The notes below the pieces were generated by a model. The model made no database searches. It was not told where the DNA came from and saw only the letters and a program-made list of their open reading frames with translations. Below are positions 3,641 through 50,799 of a DNA stretch of 64,000 bases, piece after piece (position 1 is the first letter of the stretch; each line of letters begins with the position of its first letter). The position numbers were made by a program, and so were the translations under genes. Source of the DNA: Escherichia phage MIZ4. The DNA lies in sequence record OR167180; one strand, written 5' to 3'.

Positions 3641-3674
3641 GATTGATTCTCCTAGTTCGTTTCGGTATGTGTGT

Positions 3675-3703
3675 AGTATAGGGGATCGGTGATCCCCTGT
3701 CAA
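3675..3703 (-). promoter_or_regulatory. early promoter, palindromic spacer GGGGATCGGTGATCCCC
   Basis: identical to cassette 2512..2540. Confidence 0.55.
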
Positions 3704-3711
3704 CAACTTTT

Positions 3712-4023
3712 TTAAAGTTTTTCCATGATAACGGTCATAATTACATCTTCTGCGCGAGCGGTCAGATTATCAGCGTCAGGATGTGGGCGGTTGGTTGTTA
3801 CAGAGATAACACCGTTGCGCACTGGTTTGATATTGATATCAAGATGATCCGCGAAACGTTCGCCATTTACAGAATGAATTTTGGTGTTAAATTCTTTTGC
3901 CAGTGCCTTGCGAACTTCACGAATCAGGGTAGCGTTTTTCAGTTGGTTCTCCGCGCTCATGGTCTTCTGGGTGTTCATGGTTCCGTCGAAGTCAATCATT
4001 GGCAGCGTTACGATGTATTTCAT
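3712..4023 (-). CDS. hypothetical small early protein; paralog of 402..689
   Basis: ORF track. Confidence 0.5.
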   Translation of the reverse strand: MKYIVTLPMIDFDGTMNTQKTMSAENQLKNATLIREVRKALAKEFNTKIHSVNGERFADHLDINIKPVRNGVISVTTNRPHPDADNLTARAEDVIMTVIMEKL

Positions 4024-4069
4024 TTTTGATTCTCCGTTTAAGAAAGTGTGTTTCGTTTTGATGTGTGTA

Positions 4070-4098
4070 TTATAAGGGGATCACCGATCCCCTGTCAA
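4070..4098 (-). promoter_or_regulatory. early promoter, palindromic spacer (third copy of GGGGATC-N3-GATCCCC)
   Basis: minus TTGACA (4093-4098), palindrome 4076-4092, TTATAA (4070-4075). Confidence 0.5.
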
Positions 4099-4110
4099 CA
4101 ACTTTTTGGA

Positions 4111-11893: not shown

Positions 11894-11920
11894 CTTGATA
11901 CTCCTTAGTTGTTTTGGTAT

Positions 11921-11955
11921 GGGAGTATCTTACTACTCCCGTGATATGCTGTCAA
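11921..11955 (-). promoter_or_regulatory. early promoter with palindrome GGGAGTA-N6-TACTCCC
   Basis: minus TTGACA (11950-11955), N17, TAAGAT (11927-11932). Confidence 0.5.
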
Positions 11956-11963
11956 CTGCTTTT

Positions 11964-12113
11964 TTATGCAACCGCAAACATCAACATTTGAACATTCTTG
12001 GCTGTCTGGCTTTCAAAGTTCTGACATTCTTTGATAATGTCCTCTACTTTCTCGCCGGAGATCTCCGCGTAAGTTTCGATTGCCATTTTCAGTACCGCGT
12101 CAAAGTTGCTCAT
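11964..12113 (-). CDS. hypothetical small protein (49 aa), below ORF-track cutoff
   Basis: hand-translated MSNFDAVLKMAIETYAEISGEKVEDIIKECQNFESQTAKNVQMLMFAVA; AAGGAG RBS. Confidence 0.4.
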   Translation of the reverse strand: MSNFDAVLKMAIETYAEISGEKVEDIIKECQNFESQTAKNVQMLMFAVA

Positions 12114-12140
12114 TTGATTCTCCTTAAAGTGTATTTCGTT

Positions 12141-12180
12141 TCGATGGGGGTATATTACTACCCCCGTTTCATGCTGTCAA
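12141..12180 (-). promoter_or_regulatory. early promoter with palindrome GGGGGTA-N6-TACCCCC
   Basis: minus TTGACA (12175-12180), N17, TAATAT (12152-12157). Confidence 0.5.
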
Positions 12181-19877: not shown

Positions 19878-20423
19878 CTCTTTTTCAAAAGATTTTACGA
19901 TATACATTAAATTTCTAATTTCGGACGGTGGGATTGTCTCTGTCCACCCGTCCGGCATAACTTTTTGCGATACGTGGTGTGTTTTATTACTAAGTTTTTG
20001 TCGAACAATACCCTCTAATTTTAGGGGTATGTTTCCATCTTTAGTTGTTAGCGTATGGAATATAAAGTGACGAACGGAAGACACGCTGGATTGCTGTTTC
20101 ATCCTTTCCTCGGCTTTTTTGTTGGTGATTCCGAACTTATACCCGACAATACAGCCCCAATTATCAACCAGTTTTTGTATATAAAAGGTTCCTGGTTTTC
20201 TTTTATCATAACCTCCTTTTTGAGTGGGACATTTCGGACACTGCATATCATCTAAAGATGCGACATATTTGCCATGAACGCAGCAATCCATACTTAGATT
20301 CTTTTCTCTTGCATTAATATACCCATTAATAAATCCATTGGATTTTACTTTTTCATTATGAGAACAAAATTCATCAATTCGTATATTTGCTGATATAACA
20401 TTTTTTCTTCTCATTCGTTCCAT
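19866..20423 (-). CDS. zinc-finger protein with T5orf172/GIY-YIG-like motif
   Basis: ORF track; Cys/His cluster N-terminally, then GTFYIQKL...GYKFGITNKKAEERM. Confidence 0.45.
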   Translation of the reverse strand: MERMRRKNVISANIRIDEFCSHNEKVKSNGFINGYINAREKNLSMDCCVHGKYVASLDDMQCPKCPTQKGGYDKRKPGTFYIQKLVDNWGCIVGYKFGITNKKAEERMKQQSSVSSVRHFIFHTLTTKDGNIPLKLEGIVRQKLSNKTHHVSQKVMPDGWTETIPPSEIRNLMYIVKSFEKELTA

Positions 20424-20701
20424 CCAACATTCTTGGCAACCACCTCCCCCATTTTTAAGTATATCGATCGTGGTTAATTTTTTGCTTGTGATTTGGATTT
20501 AATCCACAAGCAATTTTAATTTTAGATCGTACACCGGACCACTCATAGAATCCCAAATATATCATATCTCCGCTTTTTATTTTTGGTGAATTTAATGCTT
20601 CATTTCAATCTCAATTGGAGATTTTGAATTATAGTAATGGATATATTCTATATCTTTAGCAAATCTGGTGTTCATTTTGTCCTCCGTTGTTTCGATGTGT
20701 G

Positions 20702-20730
20702 TATTATACATTACCACATCAGCACGTCAA
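20702..20730 (-). promoter_or_regulatory. early promoter-like cassette (TTGACG) with no clear downstream gene
   Basis: read directly; only a 27-codon ORF follows. Confidence 0.3.
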
Positions 20731-20792
20731 CACCTTTTTCATAAAATTTTAGGCAATAAAAAAGCCTCCCCGAAGGGAGGCTATAAAATTCA

Positions 20793-21827: not shown

Positions 21828-22424
21828 TTAATTGCTTGTCAATACTTTATCAATTATATCTAACAGTTTTGGCTTTCTATTTTCAAATTCTAACATCTCT
21901 TCGGGAGAAATGTCAACTACTTCTGTTTTGTTGAAAAAGTTTGGGTCTATAGCATCAGCAACAAAGTTTCTCGCAAGTGCTGCCGCTTTCTCATGAACAT
22001 ATATTCCCAAATATATCAACTTCTTTCTTTCGACCTGAATATTGGCAACATATTTACCATCTCGTTTATAAAGACTAACACCGATATATTCAGACGATCG
22101 ACCTTTCTGTTTACCCATATTTCTTGAGTTTTGTTGCTCGTTCGCATCTCTCAAGTTTTCAATCCGATTATCTGTTATAATTCGGTTAACATGGTCAACG
22201 TATTTTGGCATGTATCCATGATGCATAAAGAAAATTATTCTATGCTCTTTATGATGTTTACCATCGATACACACCAATCTGTATCCATGACTAGGATTAA
22301 CTCCACCCGCTCTAGATCCGACTTTATGCTTTCTGTTTGTCGATATCTTGCGAATCAGCTTACCGTTATCATATTTAAAGAGTTCATGACAACGAGCATA
22401 CAATTCAGGATCATATGTTTTCAC
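21828..22424 (-). CDS. HNH (HNH_3-type) + AP2-domain homing endonuclease
   Basis: ORF track; GYRLVCIDGKHHKEHRIIF...VDHVNRIITDNRIENLR; AP2-like SEYIGVSLYKRDGKYVANI; sits between 32 and 59. Confidence 0.7.
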   Translation of the reverse strand: MKTYDPELYARCHELFKYDNGKLIRKISTNRKHKVGSRAGGVNPSHGYRLVCIDGKHHKEHRIIFFMHHGYMPKYVDHVNRIITDNRIENLRDANEQQNSRNMGKQKGRSSEYIGVSLYKRDGKYVANIQVERKKLIYLGIYVHEKAAALARNFVADAIDPNFFNKTEVVDISPEEMLEFENRKPKLLDIIDKVLTSN

Positions 22425-23097: not shown

Positions 23098-23367
23098 TTA
23101 AATATCGAGAGTGTTGGTCGGTTCGTCGATCACTCCCTTCCTGAGCGTTCTATTTACTATACATTCTTGTGTGATCTTGTCAATAATGGACACCGGAATA
23201 TACTTCTGATAGTGACCATATTCTATAGAGTTTTCCTCTACAAACTGAGTTGTCGCTTCAAGATAAGTCAATCCCTCTTCAACAACCAGTTTTTCGATTG
23301 CAAGACCGTTTGCTGTTTTGTTCGCGGCTTTTACCGCATGTTCATTAAGCATTGAACACCCGATCAT
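23098..23367 (-). CDS. 33: late transcription accessory protein gp33 (synteny-based)
   Basis: ORF track; position between 59 and dsbA. Confidence 0.5.
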   Translation of the reverse strand: MIGCSMLNEHAVKAANKTANGLAIEKLVVEEGLTYLEATTQFVEENSIEYGHYQKYIPVSIIDKITQECIVNRTLRKGVIDEPTNTLDI

Positions 23368-23620
23368 AGAGTTCTACCGCTTCATCGCGTTCTGCTTCGA
23401 AGGTTTCGCGCTGTTGCTGGTGATACAGTTTAAACAGAATGCCCCACATTTTACCATCTACGCCTAATTCTTCTTTAGCACGCTGCTTGATCTCTTTGAT
23501 CTTATCGCCATATGCTTCTTGAATGGTTTTCTGATCGCTGGCTTCTTTAATCAGTTGTGCCAGGGTATTTCCGTGCACTGCTTCGTCAAATACTACTTTT
23601 TCTTTTTTCTGTTCAGTCAT
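23345..23620 (-). CDS. dsbA: dsDNA-binding protein DsbA (synteny-based)
   Basis: ORF track; size and position. Confidence 0.5.
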   Translation of the reverse strand: MTEQKKEKVVFDEAVHGNTLAQLIKEASDQKTIQEAYGDKIKEIKQRAKEELGVDGKMWGILFKLYHQQQRETFEAERDEAVELYDRVFNA

Positions 23621-23624
23621 AATA

Positions 23625-24221
23625 TTAACCCTCTTTCGTCATTAATTGAAAACCACGTTCAGCTTTTGAGATTTCGCTAGGACGTAAATCGTCACCCACA
23701 TATTCTAGCATCATTTCTCGTATAATGTCAAGTGCTTTTTCATCACCTGATTTTAACTCGAACTCAAGTTCATAGTGAGCATCTCCCATGACTTCGCCGA
23801 CTTTGCAATAATAGAAAGTGTCTTTGCACATTTCCACTATAGCACCCTCAAGGTCAAGTGTCAATGACTTGCGGTATGTCATTACTTGCAATAAAGGAAC
23901 GATAAGGTCGGAGTTTACGCCTAGACTATCAACATAGTGATAGAAATCATCCATTGTTGAAAAGGTAATTTCTTCTCGGTTGAATAGTCCAGATTCACTA
24001 TCACCTATTTTGACCATGATCAATGATCTATTAACGTCAAGTCGAGCATAAATTCCTTTTCGACGCAGTGCATGATCTTCGGTATCATAATAAAATTCGT
24101 GTTTTATAATGTTATCACGGTCTACGATATTATAACCGTCATACATTGCCACCCACAAATCACAGATGGTTTCGACGCCAATTTGTGAGTGTGCATAGTA
24201 TTTTAATTCAAGTTCTTTCAT
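23625..24221 (-). CDS. CYTH-like (triphosphate tunnel metalloenzyme / class IV adenylate cyclase-like) protein
   Basis: ORF track; N-terminal ELELKY (ExExK) and C-terminal YELEFELK strands with intervening conserved R/E. Confidence 0.5.
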   Translation of the reverse strand: MKELELKYYAHSQIGVETICDLWVAMYDGYNIVDRDNIIKHEFYYDTEDHALRRKGIYARLDVNRSLIMVKIGDSESGLFNREEITFSTMDDFYHYVDSLGVNSDLIVPLLQVMTYRKSLTLDLEGAIVEMCKDTFYYCKVGEVMGDAHYELEFELKSGDEKALDIIREMMLEYVGDDLRPSEISKAERGFQLMTKEG

Positions 24222-24231
24222 GTGTCAACCC

Positions 24232-25179
24232 TTAGAACTCACCAATTTTCTGCAACATTTTAACTAACGCATTTGTTACAAAATAGTTATAAATTTTACC
24301 GCGTGGTGCTGGTTTAGATTTTTCCCATGACTCCAGAATCTGATTCTGAATATCATCTGGGATGTAATCGAAATCAATAAGTTCGCGGTTTTCGTCAAAT
24401 CGTCGTGCTTCTTCCTCTGTCATCAAAGACTTTGGGTCTTCGGCATCGAAAATTTGCTCTAACCATTTGGTTGCAACTGGTTTAGCTCGTTCCCCTTCCA
24501 GTCGAGAGATAATGAAATCACTACGACACTTGACAGAAGCCACACCGTCTTTTGCGTCACCCTTAACACATTTTACCATAAGGTCTTTGTAAGGGCTACC
24601 ATATTTGCATTTCTTCCATGCTTTCTGTACTGGCGCCCACTGTTTCACGTTTTTGTATTTGTGCAACTGTGTGTAGTCACCATCACCTGAGTTGATCAGC
24701 ACCTGGCGACCTTCGACAGAAAACTTTTTAGTTAATACAGCGATTATATCATCTGCTTCAACTTTGTCAACCTTAATAACGTGATAAGGCATGTTCTCTT
24801 TAAACTCTTCGGTGATCTTATTGATCGCAGCAAAGATCATCTCCCAATCACGAGGATCTGCGTCTCGCTTTTCCTTACGGTTGCGTTTATAGTAAGGGGC
24901 GATATCACGTCGCCAGTAACCTTTGCTTGAATCAAAAGCAAGTACCGTAATAGGGTATTGCTCTTTGAATTTTGTCATATTATAACGCATGGTGTCAAGG
25001 ATAAGATGACGGATCATGCCTTCATTAATAGGATCTTCCGGTTTAAAGGTATGCGAGATAGTAGCAATCATAAGCTGCGACATATCAATCAAATGCACAC
25101 CTTCCGGCAGTTTATCTTCTGGATCATCGAAGAAATCATTAAGTGTAGCGGTAGTTTTTGTAAACGGGTTATACGTCAT
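24232..25179 (-). CDS. rnh: RNase H (5'-3' exonuclease, FEN family)
   Basis: ORF track; collinear with T4 RNase H (VKVDKVEADDIIAVL, INSGDGDYTQLHKY, ASVKCRSDF). Confidence 0.92.
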   Translation of the reverse strand: MTYNPFTKTTATLNDFFDDPEDKLPEGVHLIDMSQLMIATISHTFKPEDPINEGMIRHLILDTMRYNMTKFKEQYPITVLAFDSSKGYWRRDIAPYYKRNRKEKRDADPRDWEMIFAAINKITEEFKENMPYHVIKVDKVEADDIIAVLTKKFSVEGRQVLINSGDGDYTQLHKYKNVKQWAPVQKAWKKCKYGSPYKDLMVKCVKGDAKDGVASVKCRSDFIISRLEGERAKPVATKWLEQIFDAEDPKSLMTEEEARRFDENRELIDFDYIPDDIQNQILESWEKSKPAPRGKIYNYFVTNALVKMLQKIGEF

Positions 25180-25181
25180 AA

Positions 25182-25367
25182 TTAAGTTCTCTCCACTCTC
25201 ACAACAACATATTCGCCAAACGAGTTAGATACTTCACGATCATACCCGTATTTCTCCATAACTCGCAGAATTGCATTGTTTAATTCGGCGCGGAAATAAT
25301 TGTAATCCTTATCAGGGATTCTGTCAACTACCCATTTTGCACCGTCTGACAAATCAACTTTAACCAT
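25182..25367 (-). CDS. hypothetical small protein
   Basis: ORF track. Confidence 0.4.
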   Translation of the reverse strand: MVKVDLSDGAKWVVDRIPDKDYNYFRAELNNAILRVMEKYGYDREVSNSFGEYVVVRVERT

Positions 25368-32117: not shown

Positions 32118-34886
32118 ATGGCAGATTTAAACAGAATCCAGTTTAAACGCACTAGCGCAGCCGGACGTAAACCGGATGCTGGTACGATGAATCCGGGAGA
32201 GTTGGCAATTAACTTAGCAGACCAATATCTGCTTACAAAAAATGATGGTGGGCAAATTGTTAATTTAAGTTGCCCACCAGTTTATGACAAGAGCGTTAAT
32301 GTAAAAGGTCGTGTGGTTGCAGATGACCTTATGTGGAGTAATACCGCAAACTATTTCGATGACCCAACCGCACGAAATCTTGATAAATTTGGGGCATTTC
32401 GTACTAATGATATGGATGGTCATCTAGCACTTGCTTTGCATATTCCCCATCCTAGCGGTATAAATCATGCTCGTGGGTTTGATTTTACTTATGGTTCTAA
32501 CGTTGTTCCTACTGTAAAAACCTATGGTTATAACGCTGATGGTGTATTGGCATATTCATATCGCATGTATCACGAAGGTGATAAGCCTAGTCCGTCAGAA
32601 TTAAATGTGTACAGCAAACAAGAAGTAGATCGGATGTTCCAGAAGACACTTGATTTTGGAATTGAGTCCGGTTGGTTTAAAATCGCTACAGTATATCTAC
32701 CACAACAATATGGGCGTAGTGCTAAAATTAGATTGGTTGGTGGTAATGGTTATAATGTAGGACAGACCGGGCAAGCTAATATTATTGAATTGGTTCTGCG
32801 TAGCGGGAATGGAAATCCGGTTGGTGTTGTGTTTAACGCTTATATGACCATCTGGTATATAGACCAGAAGTTTTGTGCTATTCCTACTGGTGGTGACTCT
32901 TATGATATATACGGTAGCTATTCCGGTCATAGTGGATTTGTGTTGGCTGAATACCAGACTAGCCCTGATGTTAACCTGACTTTATATGATAAACCACAAT
33001 TTATAGGAAGTCAATTACCGGAAGCTGAAACAAAGTTCGATGCTTATACAATCACTTCATTTAGTAATTATCGCAACCGCGGGACATTAAATTTTGGTGC
33101 TAATTCTCAAGGCCAATATGACATTGAGCATTTGAACGAACAACCGACAAATGCTAAAAAGATGTTGCGTCGCTTCCGTAGTTGTGCTCCTGCCACTATC
33201 TGGCATGAGACAGTTGATGATAACTCATATCGTCTTGCTACTGGATACGAAGATACAAATCAGGAATTATTGCTTTCGGCTGTAACCGGGTTACATGTCA
33301 AGAGATTAACATTGGATGGCGGTGTTGGTAATGCCGGTATTGACATTCGTCGAGGACCAAACGAAGCAAGCCATTTTAATTTCATGGACTATCGCACTGG
33401 ACAAGATGTTCGTAATGGCTGGTTTGGCTTCGGTGATGGTCAGACCAAAGATTTTATTTGGTGGAACGATAACGGTCAAAACTCGATAAACCTGATTGAA
33501 GATGGTGAATTGCATATTACTGGAGGTAAAGGGCAGAAAATTGTAATGAATAGCGAAGTTGCATTATCCGAAAATGCTCGTTTGGCTGTCAAAGGCGGTA
33601 ACTATGGTTTGATTTTACGCAATGATGGTTCTGGTTTCCATATTCTTACTACCAACTTAAAAGATTCTTTTGGTAGTTGGAATAATCGCAGACCATTCAG
33701 TTATGATTTTGCGGACGGTGGATTATATTTAGGTGGTACTGAAACCGCTCGTTGTTTGCATCTTGGAATTGATGGTAGCACTCGTCTTGAAGACAACCTG
33801 TTCTTTAAAGCTGGTTCTCGTCAATCTATGGACTATATGGAACTCGTCCATTGGGGGGCAAGCAATACAGGTCGAAATAACGTTTTAAGTCTTCGTGACT
33901 CAAAAGGATTTTTAGCAGAATTTGAACGATTGGGTGATAATACCATTAAAAACACCTTCTTCGGGAAACTGAAAGTTAATCGTGGTTCTGACGCTATTAC
34001 CATTAATGCCGAAACGGGAGATTCGTCGGTATATTTGTTGGGTACGTGTGCCGATAATAACAACTGGTATATCGGTAAAGGTGGTGCGGATAATGGATTA
34101 GCGTTCTATAGTTATGCTACTAATGCTGCTGTAAACATTACAAACGGAGGGGATATCGCACTAAGTCCAAAAGGCATCGAAATGACTCATGTCAATAACG
34201 TTCGATTCTATGTTCATGGTGAACGTTGGACTGCTAGCCAATCTGGAGGTTGGAACGACCAATGGGGATTAGAAGCGCCGATATTTGTTGACCACGGCTA
34301 TGTTGGACCAGACAGTTATTATCCGATTATCAAAGGAAGAAGTTTAATCACCAATCAAGGATATACAACTGCCGTTGATCTTGGTATTCGTCGTGTCCCT
34401 AACAATTGGGGGCAAGCAATTATTCGTGTTGGATCTGCGGAGGCATCGCCAGCGGCTGGTCACCCTCAAGCTGTATTCGAGTTCCATCATGATGGTACTT
34501 TCTATTCTCCTGGTAATGGTAACTTTAACGATGTTTATATTCGTTCTGATGATCGTCTTAAGATTAATAAAGAAGAGTTAGAATATGGAGCACTTGAAAA
34601 AGTATGCCGTCTGAAAGTTTATACTTACGATAAAGTTAAGTCTATTAAAGACCGTAGTGTTATTAAACGTGAAGCTGGTATTATTGCTCAGGATCTTGAA
34701 AAAGAACTACCGGAAGCTGTATCTAAAGTTGAAGTTGATGGATCTGATGTTCTGACAATTTCTAACTCGGCAGTGAATGCTCTTTTAATTAAGGCTATTC
34801 AGGAAATGAGTGAAGAAATTAAAGAATTGAAAACTCCTTTCTTTACTAAAATTGCTCGCAAAATTAGTAAATATTTTAAATTCTAA
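32118..34886 (+). CDS. 37: long tail fibre distal subunit with C-terminal intramolecular-chaperone-like domain
   Basis: ORF track; C-terminal RSDDRLK ... GIIAQDLEKELPEAV resembles self-cleaving chaperone domains of fibre/spike proteins. Confidence 0.75.
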   Translation: MADLNRIQFKRTSAAGRKPDAGTMNPGELAINLADQYLLTKNDGGQIVNLSCPPVYDKSVNVKGRVVADDLMWSNTANYFDDPTARNLDKFGAFRTNDMDGHLALALHIPHPSGINHARGFDFTYGSNVVPTVKTYGYNADGVLAYSYRMYHEGDKPSPSELNVYSKQEVDRMFQKTLDFGIESGWFKIATVYLPQQYGRSAKIRLVGGNGYNVGQTGQANIIELVLRSGNGNPVGVVFNAYMTIWYIDQKFCAIPTGGDSYDIYGSYSGHSGFVLAEYQTSPDVNLTLYDKPQFIGSQLPEAETKFDAYTITSFSNYRNRGTLNFGANSQGQYDIEHLNEQPTNAKKMLRRFRSCAPATIWHETVDDNSYRLATGYEDTNQELLLSAVTGLHVKRLTLDGGVGNAGIDIRRGPNEASHFNFMDYRTGQDVRNGWFGFGDGQTKDFIWWNDNGQNSINLIEDGELHITGGKGQKIVMNSEVALSENARLAVKGGNYGLILRNDGSGFHILTTNLKDSFGSWNNRRPFSYDFADGGLYLGGTETARCLHLGIDGSTRLEDNLFFKAGSRQSMDYMELVHWGASNTGRNNVLSLRDSKGFLAEFERLGDNTIKNTFFGKLKVNRGSDAITINAETGDSSVYLLGTCADNNNWYIGKGGADNGLAFYSYATNAAVNITNGGDIALSPKGIEMTHVNNVRFYVHGERWTASQSGGWNDQWGLEAPIFVDHGYVGPDSYYPIIKGRSLITNQGYTTAVDLGIRRVPNNWGQAIIRVGSAEASPAAGHPQAVFEFHHDGTFYSPGNGNFNDVYIRSDDRLKINKEELEYGALEKVCRLKVYTYDKVKSIKDRSVIKREAGIIAQDLEKELPEAVSKVEVDGSDVLTISNSAVNALLIKAIQEMSEEIKELKTPFFTKIARKISKYFKF

Positions 34887-34894
34887 CAACAAGG

Positions 34895-34912
34895 GGGCAA
34901 CGCCCCCTTTGG
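34895..34912 (+). promoter_or_regulatory. hairpin GGGGGC-AACG-CCCCC between 37 and 38
   Basis: read directly. Confidence 0.35.
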
Positions 34913-34922
34913 AGTATAAATT

Positions 34923-35705
34923 ATGGCAGTAGTTGGTGTTCCTGGTTGGATTGGAAGTTCAGCCGCAAATGAAACAGGGCAACGATGGATGAGTCAAGCG
35001 GCTGGTCAACTAAGATTGGGTGTTCCTTGCTGGATGAGTCAATTTTCAGGTCGCTCGCGAGAAATTATTCATACACTTGGTGCAGACCATAACTTCAATG
35101 GTCAGTGGTTCCGTGATAGATGCTTTGAGGCAGGTAGTACACCTATAGTGTTTAATATTACAGGTGATTTAGTATCATATTCTAAAGATGTTCCTTTATT
35201 CTTCATGTACGGGGATACACCAAATGAATATGTTCAGTTGAATATACATGGCGTAACGATGTATGGTCGTGGCGGGAATGGCGGTAGCAATGGTCCTGGA
35301 TCAGCCGGGGGGCATTGTATTCAAAATGATATTGGTGGGAGGCTAAGAATTAATAATGGCGGTGCTATCGCTGGCGGCGGTGGCGGTGGCGGTGGCGGGT
35401 ATTATTCTCCTTTTTCACAAATGAGATTAACCTTTGGCGGTGGCGGTGGGCGTCCGTTTGGTGCGCCCGGCGGATCTATTGATATGCAATCAGGCGCAAC
35501 TGCTGGTACTCTTTATGCGCCCGGATCGGGGTCCGTGAACGGTATCTATAATGGCGGAAGCGGTGGTGAGGTAGGCGCCGCAGGAGGTAGATGTAATATT
35601 CGTGGTCAAGGATCTGAATATAATGGCGGCGATTCTGGATATGCTGTTATAGGGTCTTCTCCAACGTGGCAAAATCGCGGAGCTATTTACGGACCGGCTG
35701 TTTAG
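34923..35705 (+). CDS. 38: tail fibre adhesin, T2-type gp38 with glycine-rich motifs
   Basis: ORF track; several poly-Gly motifs ([26 protein letters not shown]) separated by variable segments. Confidence 0.8.
35374..35459 (+). repeat. GGC/GGT trinucleotide tracts encoding poly-Gly in gene 38
   Basis: ggcggcggtggcggtggcggtggcggg and ggcggtggcggtggg read directly. Confidence 0.7.
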
Positions 35706-35769
35706 ATGTAATTATAAAAAGAATTAAGGAAAACTCCCACGGAAGGGGAACTACTAAGGAGAAACGGCT

Positions 35770-48135: not shown

Positions 48136-49959
48136 TTATGATTGCATCCAAATTTTGCGCTGATCTGCATCTTCACTATAGAGCAAATCGAATAGCTCTT
48201 TATAGTTTTCCGGTAACGTGATGATCTCCATGACAGGATCGTTGATCACGCGATGATAGTCTGATTCTGTGAGCGATGCTAAACCTTTGATATATCGAAT
48301 GTTGTAACCTTTGATATTATCTCGGTCGTTCTCGAAATCTTCTAGGTCATAATACCATCGAACATCATCACCTTTCTTTGGTTCAGCAATGATAATAGGT
48401 GTTTTGATAAACCGGATTCGTCCATCTTCGAACAATTCAGGCCAACGTGCAAAGAAAGAGATCAGACTAGGTTTAATAGACCCGATCCCGTCAGTATCAG
48501 CGTCGGTCATAATCGCAATATTTTTGTATTGCATAACTTCCAATGCATCAACACCAAATTGCAAGCCAGTGATCGCCATGATGTTAAAAATTTCGGCGTT
48601 CTTAACGATCTTTGCCTCCGGTTGTTCCCACGTTGTAAGAGTTTTGCCTCGCAACGGGAAACCTCCATGTAAATCTTGATCGCGTACAGAGATCAGATAG
48701 TTGATCGCGGAATCACCTTCCGTCAAAAACAGGGTAGTTTCTGCGTCAGTTCCAATAAGGTTAGCTTTAACGTGTTTTGCCACCTTAGCCCGTTTCGCTG
48801 CCTTTGCTGCCTTAGTCGCTGCCGCTTTATCTGCTGCCTCTTTGCGTGCCAGGACTACAGCAATAATAGGCATGATAATGTTTTCTTTCTTAGCAATGAC
48901 TTTAGCCAGCTTTTTAAAATCAAGATCAATATGACGCTTGATATCACCAGTTGGATTAGTCAATCGTTCTTTTGTCTGTGAATCAAAACGGAGGTTTGGC
49001 AATTCACGAACAATAAGAATACAGGTCAATCCAGACTTAACCGCAGCTTTAGTAACATCAACCTTATATTCTTTCTTGATTCGTTTTACAATCTCTTCAC
49101 AAAGATCATCTGTCACATAATCAACGTGTGTTCCCCCGTTTTTGGTAAACAGACCATTAGCAAAGGATACTGATTTAAAACCTTCTCCCTCGACCGCAGG
49201 AACTAGGGCAAGTGAAAAGTTTTTATCTTCAATGACAAACGGATCATCATTGTATAGTTTAGCATAATCCTTGAACTTGCTGGTTATCTTTTTTCCATTA
49301 AACTTAAACGTGATCTTAGGAAAGATTACACTTAAGGAATACATACGGTCACAAATTACATCTGAAATTTCTTGTGACATGATCATACCTTCAAAATGAT
49401 CGAAATCGGGGCAGAACGTAACCTTAGTTCCTTTCAGTTTTGACGGCTTAGATGACCAGCTAATATTTTCTGCACCATTGGTACATTGAACGGTCAGTTC
49501 ATTCTCTCCGTCACACGTCACACCAGTAAACCAGGACGAGAAAAATGATGTGAGCGCGCTTCCGATCCCATTCATACCCATAGTAACACGATTTGTATCA
49601 TCAAAGTTAGACCCTGCTTTAGCTCGTGTCCATGCAGCAACTGGTTGTGGAATCTGTTTCCCTTCTGGCGTCGTAACAATATGTTGCGGAATACCGCGAC
49701 CATTATCTGTTACTGACACAATGTTATCTTTTATATCCACACTAATAACATTAGCGTACTCAAAATTAGTGCGGATCGCCTCGTCTACAGAATTGTCGAT
49801 AATTTCATCAATAATTTTAACTAGACCGGGAACGTATGAAACTTTGGTCCATTTTCCAAATAGGAAACGATTGTGTGATTCATAAGTCGTTGACCCGATG
49901 TACATTGAAGGTCTCTTAAGACAGTGAGCGCGATCATCCAACAGCAAAAATTCAGACAT
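48136..49959 (-). CDS. 39: DNA topoisomerase II large subunit (GyrB-like), single 607-aa ORF covering T4 39 plus 60
   Basis: ORF track; Bergerat ATPase VTDNGRGIP, Toprim; length fits a fused 39/60. Confidence 0.9.
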   Translation of the reverse strand: MSEFLLLDDRAHCLKRPSMYIGSTTYESHNRFLFGKWTKVSYVPGLVKIIDEIIDNSVDEAIRTNFEYANVISVDIKDNIVSVTDNGRGIPQHIVTTPEGKQIPQPVAAWTRAKAGSNFDDTNRVTMGMNGIGSALTSFFSSWFTGVTCDGENELTVQCTNGAENISWSSKPSKLKGTKVTFCPDFDHFEGMIMSQEISDVICDRMYSLSVIFPKITFKFNGKKITSKFKDYAKLYNDDPFVIEDKNFSLALVPAVEGEGFKSVSFANGLFTKNGGTHVDYVTDDLCEEIVKRIKKEYKVDVTKAAVKSGLTCILIVRELPNLRFDSQTKERLTNPTGDIKRHIDLDFKKLAKVIAKKENIIMPIIAVVLARKEAADKAAATKAAKAAKRAKVAKHVKANLIGTDAETTLFLTEGDSAINYLISVRDQDLHGGFPLRGKTLTTWEQPEAKIVKNAEIFNIMAITGLQFGVDALEVMQYKNIAIMTDADTDGIGSIKPSLISFFARWPELFEDGRIRFIKTPIIIAEPKKGDDVRWYYDLEDFENDRDNIKGYNIRYIKGLASLTESDYHRVINDPVMEIITLPENYKELFDLLYSEDADQRKIWMQS

Positions 49960-49965
49960 ATTATA

Positions 49966-50799
49966 TCATTCTCCGTCAGTTCGTTTCAGATATTCCAATG
50001 CCGCATATAATCTCTGAGGATCGTCTTTGAACATCCCTAATCCGGCATTACATTTTCCACAAAGAACACCTCTTATCTTACCAGTCTTATGATTATGGTC
50101 AAGATGTTTCCACTTTTGGCGTTTTCTCACGCCGCATCGTTCATTTATGAATTTTACACCGCATATCTCGCAATTGTCAACTCTGCCTAAAATTTCTAAC
50201 GCTTCTCTTTTTGATATTTTTATACCATTTTCGGCATGATGATATGGCCTATCTAGTTCTCGCTCTCGCTTCTCAAACAATCGACACTCATCAGAACAAT
50301 ACTTTTGAGATACGTTTATTGCAACAAATGGTTTACCACATTTAGCGCATTCTCGTTCAATCTTTATGTTTTGTGCTTGGTCCAACGATGCGCAACGAGA
50401 ACAGCAAAATTTATGATATCCTTTAGAGTATGTATGATAATTTACAGGATTTGGGCATCTTGCACATTTAACTATTCCTGTTATTCCGTGGCGCAATCTA
50501 TAAACAGCCTCGTTATATGGTTGTTGATTTCTGAGACCTCCATTACAGAACTTAAACTCATTCCTTATAATCTGAAATTCCGCAGGATACAATTTTTCCA
50601 TTTCTGGAATTTTATTTTCTTTAAAAAGATTTGAGTTTAGTCTATTTCCGCTTTTCGCCTCCAGAACATCAACAATAAACTTTTTGATGTTCACTTTTTC
50701 TCTCCAATACATAACATAACCATAACTTACTGCAACCGCCACAAAGACGGCTGCAACAATCATATTAAAAATTGAGTGATTGTCAAGTATATGACTCAT
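49966..50799 (-). CDS. membrane-anchored protein with zinc ribbons and endonuclease VII-like His-Cys box
   Basis: ORF track; N-terminal TM; C-terminal KHLDHNHKTGKIRGVLCGKCNAGLGMF resembles T4 endo VII catalytic motif. Confidence 0.55.
   Translation of the reverse strand: MSHILDNHSIFNMIVAAVFVAVAVSYGYVMYWREKVNIKKFIVDVLEAKSGNRLNSNLFKENKIPEMEKLYPAEFQIIRNEFKFCNGGLRNQQPYNEAVYRLRHGITGIVKCARCPNPVNYHTYSKGYHKFCCSRCASLDQAQNIKIERECAKCGKPFVAINVSQKYCSDECRLFEKRERELDRPYHHAENGIKISKREALEILGRVDNCEICGVKFINERCGVRKRQKWKHLDHNHKTGKIRGVLCGKCNAGLGMFKDDPQRLYAALEYLKRTDGE

Follow-up and report, generated by a model that had tools for sequence, protein, structure and literature searches.

A stand-alone triphosphate tunnel protein with a mosaic exterior in Krischvirus phages: most likely a YgiF-like hydrolase rather than a cyclase

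Gene organization and predicted expression

The window analysed here is a stretch of 64,000 nucleotides from Escherichia phage MIZ4 (OR167180), in which a gene for a protein of the CYTH/triphosphate tunnel metalloenzyme (TTM) superfamily is situated between rnh and dsbA. The main features of the locus are as follows.

23345..23620, minus strand: dsbA, downstream of the CYTH gene
23625..24221, minus strand: CYTH/triphosphate tunnel metalloenzyme gene, 198 aa; orthologue of RB49p245/RB49ORF244c
24229..24233, minus strand: Shine-Dalgarno-like AAGGG, 7 nt 5' of the CYTH ATG and overlapping the rnh stop; read from the sequence
24232..25179, minus strand: rnh, upstream of the CYTH gene and on the same strand
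24743..24770, minus strand: best sigma-70-like promoter, inside rnh (TTGACA-16-TATAAT with TG, 12/12); a candidate early promoter, by consensus match only

The 198-aa ORF was found on the minus strand exactly where the preliminary description had placed it, and the tight packing with rnh and dsbA proposed there is reflected in intergenic gaps of 10 nt (rnh/CYTH) and 4 nt (CYTH/dsbA), with no terminator-like sites between the genes. Further downstream, beyond dsbA, are gene 33, gene 59, an HNH endonuclease gene and gene 32. In T4, dsbA directly adjoins rnh, in agreement with the preliminary description. The surrounding 3-kb stretch was 100% identical to Escherichia phage MIZ5 (OR167181.1), and 95-99% identity over the same stretch was observed for 55 of the 57 other Krischvirus (RB49-like) records. 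None of the neighbours of the CYTH gene was informative with regard to a role in immune signalling. Foreign DNA could be ruled out as far as base composition is concerned, the GC content being 0.37-0.385 for the gene and 0.33-0.45 for its flanks.

With regard to expression, 22 sigma-70-like promoters (17 of them on the minus strand) were found between 22300 and 25500, versus 9.6 +/- 3.2 in shuffles, and no exact late promoter TATAAATA was present on the minus strand within ~16 kb of the CYTH gene. On the basis of this minus-strand excess and the lack of an exact late promoter nearby, it is plausible that the CYTH gene is transcribed early together with rnh and dsbA. Two other sigma-70-like matches were located within the locus, one straddling the CYTH start codon (24228..24200, minus strand) and one ahead of dsbA, within the conserved 3' portion of the CYTH gene (23731..23702, minus strand).

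Several additional features of the region were observed. A 61-aa ORF of unknown function (25182..25367, minus strand; phrog_3594) separates rnh from the divergently transcribed gene 34; Krischvirus phages keep this ORF, whereas T4 has no counterpart at that position. Between gene 32 and gene 59, a 198-aa HNH-AP2 homing-endonuclease ORF (21828..22424, minus strand) shares 14 nt with the end of gene 59. MIZ5, Skers and G2494 carry this ORF, RB49, Phi1, JK32 and ECD7 do not, and at the same junction T4 has another homing endonuclease, SegG (GIY-YIG family). For gene 33, the longest ORF (89 aa; 23098..23367, minus strand) overlaps dsbA by 23 nt; the start given in several GenBank records corresponds to an 84-aa form, for which the overlap is 8 nt.

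Occurrence of the gene and previous annotation

The gene was identified in 58 phage records, always at the same position, and every record inspected belonged to Krischvirus. When the phage collection was searched with two distant clade members (P0044 and P0045), the same 58 records alone were returned, and within this collection the clade is restricted to Krischvirus. Relatives with 45% and 35% identity occur on uncultured T4-like contigs, where they are likewise located directly upstream of dsbA-33, which argues that the gene is an old resident of the lineage rather than a recent insertion. P0044 alone matched nothing among the viral contigs scanned, and an alignment of the clade detected only three contigs; like the Krischvirus alleles, each of these is 35-36% identical to P0044. 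When one genome per bacterial species was scanned, no clade member was found among the matches listed, which included only a canonical Acinetobacter CYTH-CHAD pair. An uncultured Acinetobacter sp. MAG (L017, 2968..6110) contains two tandem full-length CYTH-CHAD (YgiF-like) genes encoding proteins of 485 and 494 aa.

One of the 58 records, phage vB_EcoM_G2494 (MK327935), has a 1-nt deletion in codon 59 of the CYTH gene (L004 ~1674, corresponding to window ~24047). The deletion falls within the YARLD strand and splits the ORF into two annotated pieces. It may represent a real pseudogene, in which case the gene would be dispensable in culture, or else a sequencing error.

It should be noted that the CYTH assignment is already published and annotated and is not new. 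A CYTH domain match (E 0.0026) was reported for RB49ORF244c (Nolan et al., 2006; PMC1524935), and the RefSeq note on the RB49 orthologue, RB49p245, reads 'similar to ... ygiF'. What is new here is that the cyclase signature can be excluded, that strand 3 has the variant form YxRxD and that the surface cassette is sharply bounded and has multiple lineages. The literature yielded no functional work on RB49p245, nor on other phage CYTH proteins, apart from a general comment on jumbo phages; in a survey of such phages, the breakdown of NTPs with unmodified bases was suggested as a task of phage CYTH and MazG triphosphatases (PMC7824862). Neither a published anti-defence role for a phage CYTH protein nor an earlier report of surface swapping among the versions carried by near-identical phages was found in the literature, and Krischvirus is not mentioned in two recent studies of phage gene essentiality.

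Fold and family membership

The phage protein matched the Pfam CYTH family (PF01928) with 30.3 bits, compared with a curated cut-off of 23.2, and a confident AlphaFold (AF2) model built from 16 homologues (pLDDT 91.4) contains the eight-stranded antiparallel beta-barrel tunnel. Profile-profile alignment (hhalign) of the phage clade with 16 canonical CYTH proteins, drawn from the matches among 1.84 billion cluster representatives, gave a probability of 99.8% and an E value of 1.5e-29. The preliminary description had recognized a CYTH-like protein and named structure prediction of the tunnel barrel as a check, and both the family and the barrel were recovered. The search of the 1.84 billion representatives yielded 6 matches below 1e-10, the remainder consisting of distant ~200-aa CYTH proteins that stand alone and of ~500-aa proteins such as P0050 (520 aa), in which the CYTH domain is N-terminal. 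In another protein from this search, P0049 (462 aa), a P-loop motif (GTPRAGKTT) occurs in the region C-terminal to the CYTH domain, which suggests a kinase-like domain comparable with that of plant TTM1/2, where a TTM is combined with a kinase domain. In a comparison of the phage-clade profile with all PDB sequences, YgiF was the sole match (E 1e-8), and it is the nearest relative of the phage protein both by sequence and by fold. The PHROG scan placed the protein in PHROG 14893, which has no assigned function, and the NCBIfam and PADLOC scans gave no match.

YgiF (PDB 5a60/5a61) is a CYTH-CHAD inorganic triphosphatase belonging to cluster 1 of Vogt et al. (2021), whereas no CHAD domain was identified by Pfam in the phage protein, which with its 198 aa stops after the plug helix. 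The two proteins share 22-24% identity, and on strand 3 YgiF has GxRxR where the phage protein has YxRxD, the hairpin after this strand being two residues shorter in the latter. A recent capture of host ygiF was ruled out on the grounds of this low identity and the absence of the CHAD domain. The mammalian 25-kDa thiamine triphosphatase (PDB 3bhd, 5a64) likewise combines a single TTM domain with a plug helix. Class IV adenylate cyclases (Aeromonas CyaB; Yersinia pestis AC-IV, PDB 2fjt/3n10) have the superfamily, the fold and ExExK in common with the phage protein, and the barrel is also common to viral capping RNA triphosphatases (of giant viruses and poxviruses, and baculovirus LEF-4) and scattered phage CYTH proteins. 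Matches in BFVD had at most 16% identity, except for two close relatives at 83% and 98%.

Conservation of active-site residues

The counterparts of the canonical elements were located as follows.

24201..24215, minus strand: ExExK (E3, E5, K7), strand 1; invariant in the homologue alignments and aligned by hhalign to canonical ExExK
Strand 2: Y44 and D46, the canonical Y/D (hhalign)
24036..24050, minus strand: YxRxD (Y58-A-R60-L-D62), strand 3; [G/S/A]xRxR in canonical relatives
24009..24011, minus strand: K71, strand 4; equivalent to YgiF K69, invariant, aligned to the canonical Lys
23970..23978, minus strand: R82-E83-E84, strand 5; canonical RxE, with R82 and E84 invariant and aligned by hhalign
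23871..23873, minus strand: R117, strand 6; canonical tunnel Arg, invariant, aligned by hhalign
Strand 7: E130 and D134, the canonical E/D (hhalign)
23757..23771, minus strand: E151-L-E153-F-E155, strand 8; invariant, aligned to YgiF CELELEL
23637..23666, minus strand: C-terminal plug helix, residues 186-195 (part of SKAERGFQLM); a helix in the AF2 model, aligned to YgiF SKAARGY, with K186 and R189 as the canonical SKxxRG (hhalign)

Each canonical invariant is paired by hhalign with an identical residue of the phage clade (E3, E5, K7, Y44, D46, R60, K71, R82, E84, R117, E130, D134, E151, E153, E155, K186 and R189), and these residues were invariant among homologues down to 35-45% identity. In the plug-helix region, S185, K186 and R189 were invariant in the homologue alignments. 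With respect to the motifs initially pointed out, ELELKY corresponds to residues 3-8 and the conserved Arg and Glu between the motifs (R60, R82, E84, R117 and others) are invariant, whereas YELEFELK, which had been assigned to the end of the protein, occupies residues 150-157 and is followed by a helix and the plug helix.

Roles were assigned to these residues from the structures and mutants of YgiF and AtTTM3. In YgiF, the triphosphate is carried by a metal bound to E160, a second metal, coordinated by E4, E6 and E162, activates the attacking water, and R56 touches the oxygen that bridges the beta- and gamma-phosphates (PMC4641920). The strand 8 counterparts of YgiF E160 (metal 1) and E162 (metal 2) are E151 and E153, respectively; by analogy, E3 and E5 are putative ligands of metal 2 and K7 is the putative phosphate-binding Lys. 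The phage protein is a stand-alone CYTH/triphosphate tunnel barrel whose active-site residues appear to be intact.

The assignment of strand 3 (G56-I-Y58-A-R60-L-D62) depends on the alignment register. In the hhalign register, R60 corresponds to the invariant first Arg, D62 to the second Arg and Y58 to the small residue, with a two-residue gap in the next hairpin. The ungapped pairwise alignments of HMMER place Y58, not R60, on the position of the catalytic Arg, and in this register the distant clade members P0044 and P0045 have Val or Ile at the first-Arg position. R60 is the sole Arg of strand 3 that is invariant across the phage clade, and its register fits both the hairpin loop of the model and the one-residue-shorter loops of P0042 and P0043; R60 is probably the catalytic Arg. 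If the HMMER register is correct and Tyr58 occupies that position, hydrolysis could be impaired or the chemistry could be different.

Thiamine triphosphatase (cluster 8) has W/YxRxR on strand 3, where the aromatic side chain, two residues ahead of the catalytic Arg, stacks against the organic moiety of the substrate (PMC8233210). In the R60 register, phage Tyr58 takes the position of Trp53 of this enzyme, and YxRxD would match W/YxRxR in the aromatic residue and the first Arg but has Asp instead of the second Arg, a comparison that holds for this register. The clade-specific Tyr58 and Asp62 may indicate a small organic triphosphate as substrate, and the YxRxD change could have altered the specificity relative to inorganic triphosphate.

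Comparison with class IV cyclases

True class IV cyclases are characterized by an HF motif four residues ahead of ExExK (HFxxxxExExK), by the substitution of a small residue (Cys, Val or Leu) for the first Arg of strand 3, and by a strand 8 with ExA instead of ExE (Vogt et al., 2021; PMC8233210). The phage protein lacks the HFxxxxExExK motif, as just Met-Lys precedes E3. Strand 8 reads E151-x-E153 rather than ExA, and E153 is invariant, giving the hydrolase-type ExE with the second Glu at the metal 2 position. By these two rules, that is, the missing HF motif and the ExE of strand 8, the phage protein falls with the hydrolases. The first-Arg position of strand 3 is Arg (hhalign) or Tyr (HMMER) and is small in neither register. 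YgiF itself hydrolyses inorganic triphosphate and, slowly, thiamine triphosphate, and no cyclase activity was seen (PMC3440374).

Thus, as judged from sequence and by analogy with YgiF, the phage protein, as a member of the YgiF branch, is most likely to hydrolyse a triphosphate in a metal-dependent manner rather than to act as a cyclase. Of the activities that the preliminary description had offered, that of a triphosphatase is favoured by E151-x-E153 and by YgiF as the nearest relative, whereas that of a class IV adenylate cyclase is not sustained, HFxxxxExExK being absent. The practical outcome is an annotation correction: the label 'adenylate cyclase', carried by a few GenBank records, is unsupported given the lack of the HF motif, the ExE of strand 8 and a nearest relative without cyclase activity. 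The label 'inorganic triphosphatase', found in two records, is a reasonable guess by homology.

Mosaic evolution of the CYTH gene

Two segments of the gene differ in their divergence among Krischvirus phages.

23784..24194, minus strand: hypervariable central cassette, codons 10-146; 42-93% DNA identity to other Krischvirus versus 96-100% in the flanks
23625..23783, minus strand: constant 3' segment, codons 147-198 and stop; 89-100% aa identity among Krischvirus alleles

In comparison with phage Skers, rnh, dsbA, 33, 59 and 32 have 97-100% DNA identity, and a drop to 42-67% is observed strictly within the ORF, between ~codon 10 and codon 146. The 9 codons ahead of this drop are identical, and identity recovers to 93-98% over the 3' 160 bp of the ORF. 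The 3' boundary of the cassette is common to Phi1, JK32, ECD7 and a metagenomic allele. Within the cassette, dS was saturated against Skers and the metagenomic locus L008 and reached 0.33-0.70 against Phi1, ECD7 and JK32. Codons 147-198 had dS values of 0.07-0.26, like the flanking genes, with which the 3' segment, as judged from sequence divergence, shares recent ancestry. At least four cassette lineages could be distinguished, which are ~40% identical to one another and to the allele of a different phage genus, and across which the C-terminal 52 residues are 89-100% identical.

The invariant residues of the cassette are concentrated in the tunnel-facing strand positions (19 of 35); none of the 37 outward-facing strand positions is invariant, and helices and loops contribute 2 of 31 and 4 of 34, respectively. 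The overall dN/dS of the gene was 0.18-0.31. In our reading, the tunnel would be under strong purifying selection, and the exterior either free to vary or being diversified. Since the tunnel interior is kept in all alleles and the exterior varies, the chemistry looks constant across phages.

Targeted hypermutation of the DGR type was ruled out: divergence is saturated at all site classes, no reverse transcriptase was detected by Pfam and PHROG scans of seven neighbouring genes, and the cassette lineages are as distant as alleles from other phage genera. Recombination appears to fit the variable cassette better than targeted hypermutation, and we read the pattern as old allelic lineages that may have been swapped through recombination in the conserved gene ends.

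Over 50 kb, the comparison of MIZ5 with Skers revealed nine islands that could not be aligned by megablast, the rest being 95.6% identical, and at least five of the eight islands other than the CYTH cassette correspond to tail-fibre/adhesin or HNH/GIY-YIG nuclease genes. The larger of the other islands are at window positions 3651-4100, 11901-12150, 19901-20750, 32651-35750 and 49051-50450; several of them match HNH/GIY-YIG nuclease and distal tail-fibre/adhesin genes, and 11901-12150 covers small ORFs of unknown function. In addition, a patch in the C-terminal part of rnh (24320..24365, minus strand) is 60-67% identical to JK32, ECD7 and L008, compared with 91-100% for the other parts of rnh, and does not track the type of the CYTH cassette.

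Proposed function and alternative explanations

We consider that the protein is probably a soluble single-domain triphosphate tunnel metalloenzyme of the YgiF type, which hydrolyses a triphosphate. We infer its activity, metal use, substrate and expression timing as follows, with a mode of action as described for YgiF and AtTTM3. The triphosphate, together with a metal ion, would be bound inside the eight-stranded barrel by R60, K71, R82, R117 and K7, metal site 1 would be completed by E151, and one end of the tunnel would be closed by the C-terminal plug helix. The products would be a diphosphate and orthophosphate, not a cyclic nucleotide. By homology, the default substrate would be inorganic triphosphate; alternatively, a small organic triphosphate might be used, with its organic part against the plug helix, as hinted at by Tyr58 and Asp62. 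The enzyme would be expressed early, together with rnh and dsbA. Points against the hydrolase view are that the CHAD domain of YgiF is missing, that strand 3 has one Arg rather than two, and that Tyr58 falls on the catalytic Arg in the HMMER register; the G2494 deletion, if real, would also make the gene dispensable in culture. Moreover, in E. coli extracts inorganic pyrophosphatase is responsible for almost all inorganic triphosphate hydrolysis, and a ygiF knock-out caused no decrease (PMC3440374), so that an extra inorganic triphosphatase would bring no obvious benefit to the phage.

The protein might instead act in counter-defence or host takeover, hydrolysing a triphosphate-bearing immune or stress molecule, or inorganic triphosphate produced by host dNTP triphosphohydrolases, and its surface would then vary because host factors recognize it. 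The combination of an invariant tunnel and a variable exterior points in this direction, as do the persistence of several deep cassette lineages in near-identical genomes and the fact that at least five of the eight other MIZ5/Skers islands lie in tail-fibre, homing-endonuclease or GIY-YIG nuclease genes. According to a preprint on a bacterial dGTPase defence, inorganic triphosphate is set free by this system (10.1101/2021.04.26.441389). However, neither a PADLOC match nor a literature link to defence was found, recombination alone, without selection, can yield mosaicism, and dN/dS is below 1. Moreover, no E. coli immune signal is known to have a free triphosphate that would need to be removed. 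A diversifying exterior would be compatible with a role in conflict, but on balance such a role seems unlikely; the same holds for its more specific version, in which the enzyme strips the terminal phosphate off a stress or immune metabolite, either organic and stacking on Tyr58 or inorganic triphosphate, and has a polymorphic exterior since host factors sense or inhibit it.

We regard as quite unlikely a polynucleotide 5'-triphosphatase that trims the terminal phosphate off 5'-triphosphate RNA. Such an enzyme might act on host or phage transcripts, which would then become prone to 5'-end-dependent decay, or on the pppRNA primers cleared by the neighbouring RNase H. TTMs seen in the fold searches include RNA triphosphatases of the Cet1 type and those of viral capping enzymes, the gene is located within a replication cluster directly downstream of rnh, and Tyr58 and the lost Arg hint at a substrate with an organic part. 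The Cet1-like RNA triphosphatase profile (Pfam PF02940, mRNA_triPase) was not matched by the phage protein.

A non-catalytic protein that binds triphosphate as a sponge or regulator, with the fold kept and turnover lost, could be imagined from the reduction of the canonical RxR to one Arg and the entry of an Asp into the tunnel, and in the HMMER register the catalytic Arg is lost altogether. This is nevertheless very improbable, as all metal-binding glutamates, like the remaining basic residues, have stayed invariant despite deep divergence, as expected of a working enzyme. Finally, a class IV (CyaB) nucleotide cyclase, making cAMP or another cyclic nucleotide during infection, is hardly to be expected from a protein with the motifs described above.

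Implications

CYTH enzymes are ancient and widespread, and the physiological role is unclear for most of their bacterial members, including YgiF. All 58 sequenced records of the genus keep the enzyme with its invariant tunnel, which offers a simple system for the question of its substrate in vivo. In this genome region, cassette-like polymorphism of the exterior is otherwise observed mostly in tail-fibre and homing-endonuclease genes, and the pattern suggests, short of proof, that the surface of the CYTH protein interacts with some host component. If a role in conflict is true, this would be the first triphosphate tunnel enzyme in phage-host conflict.
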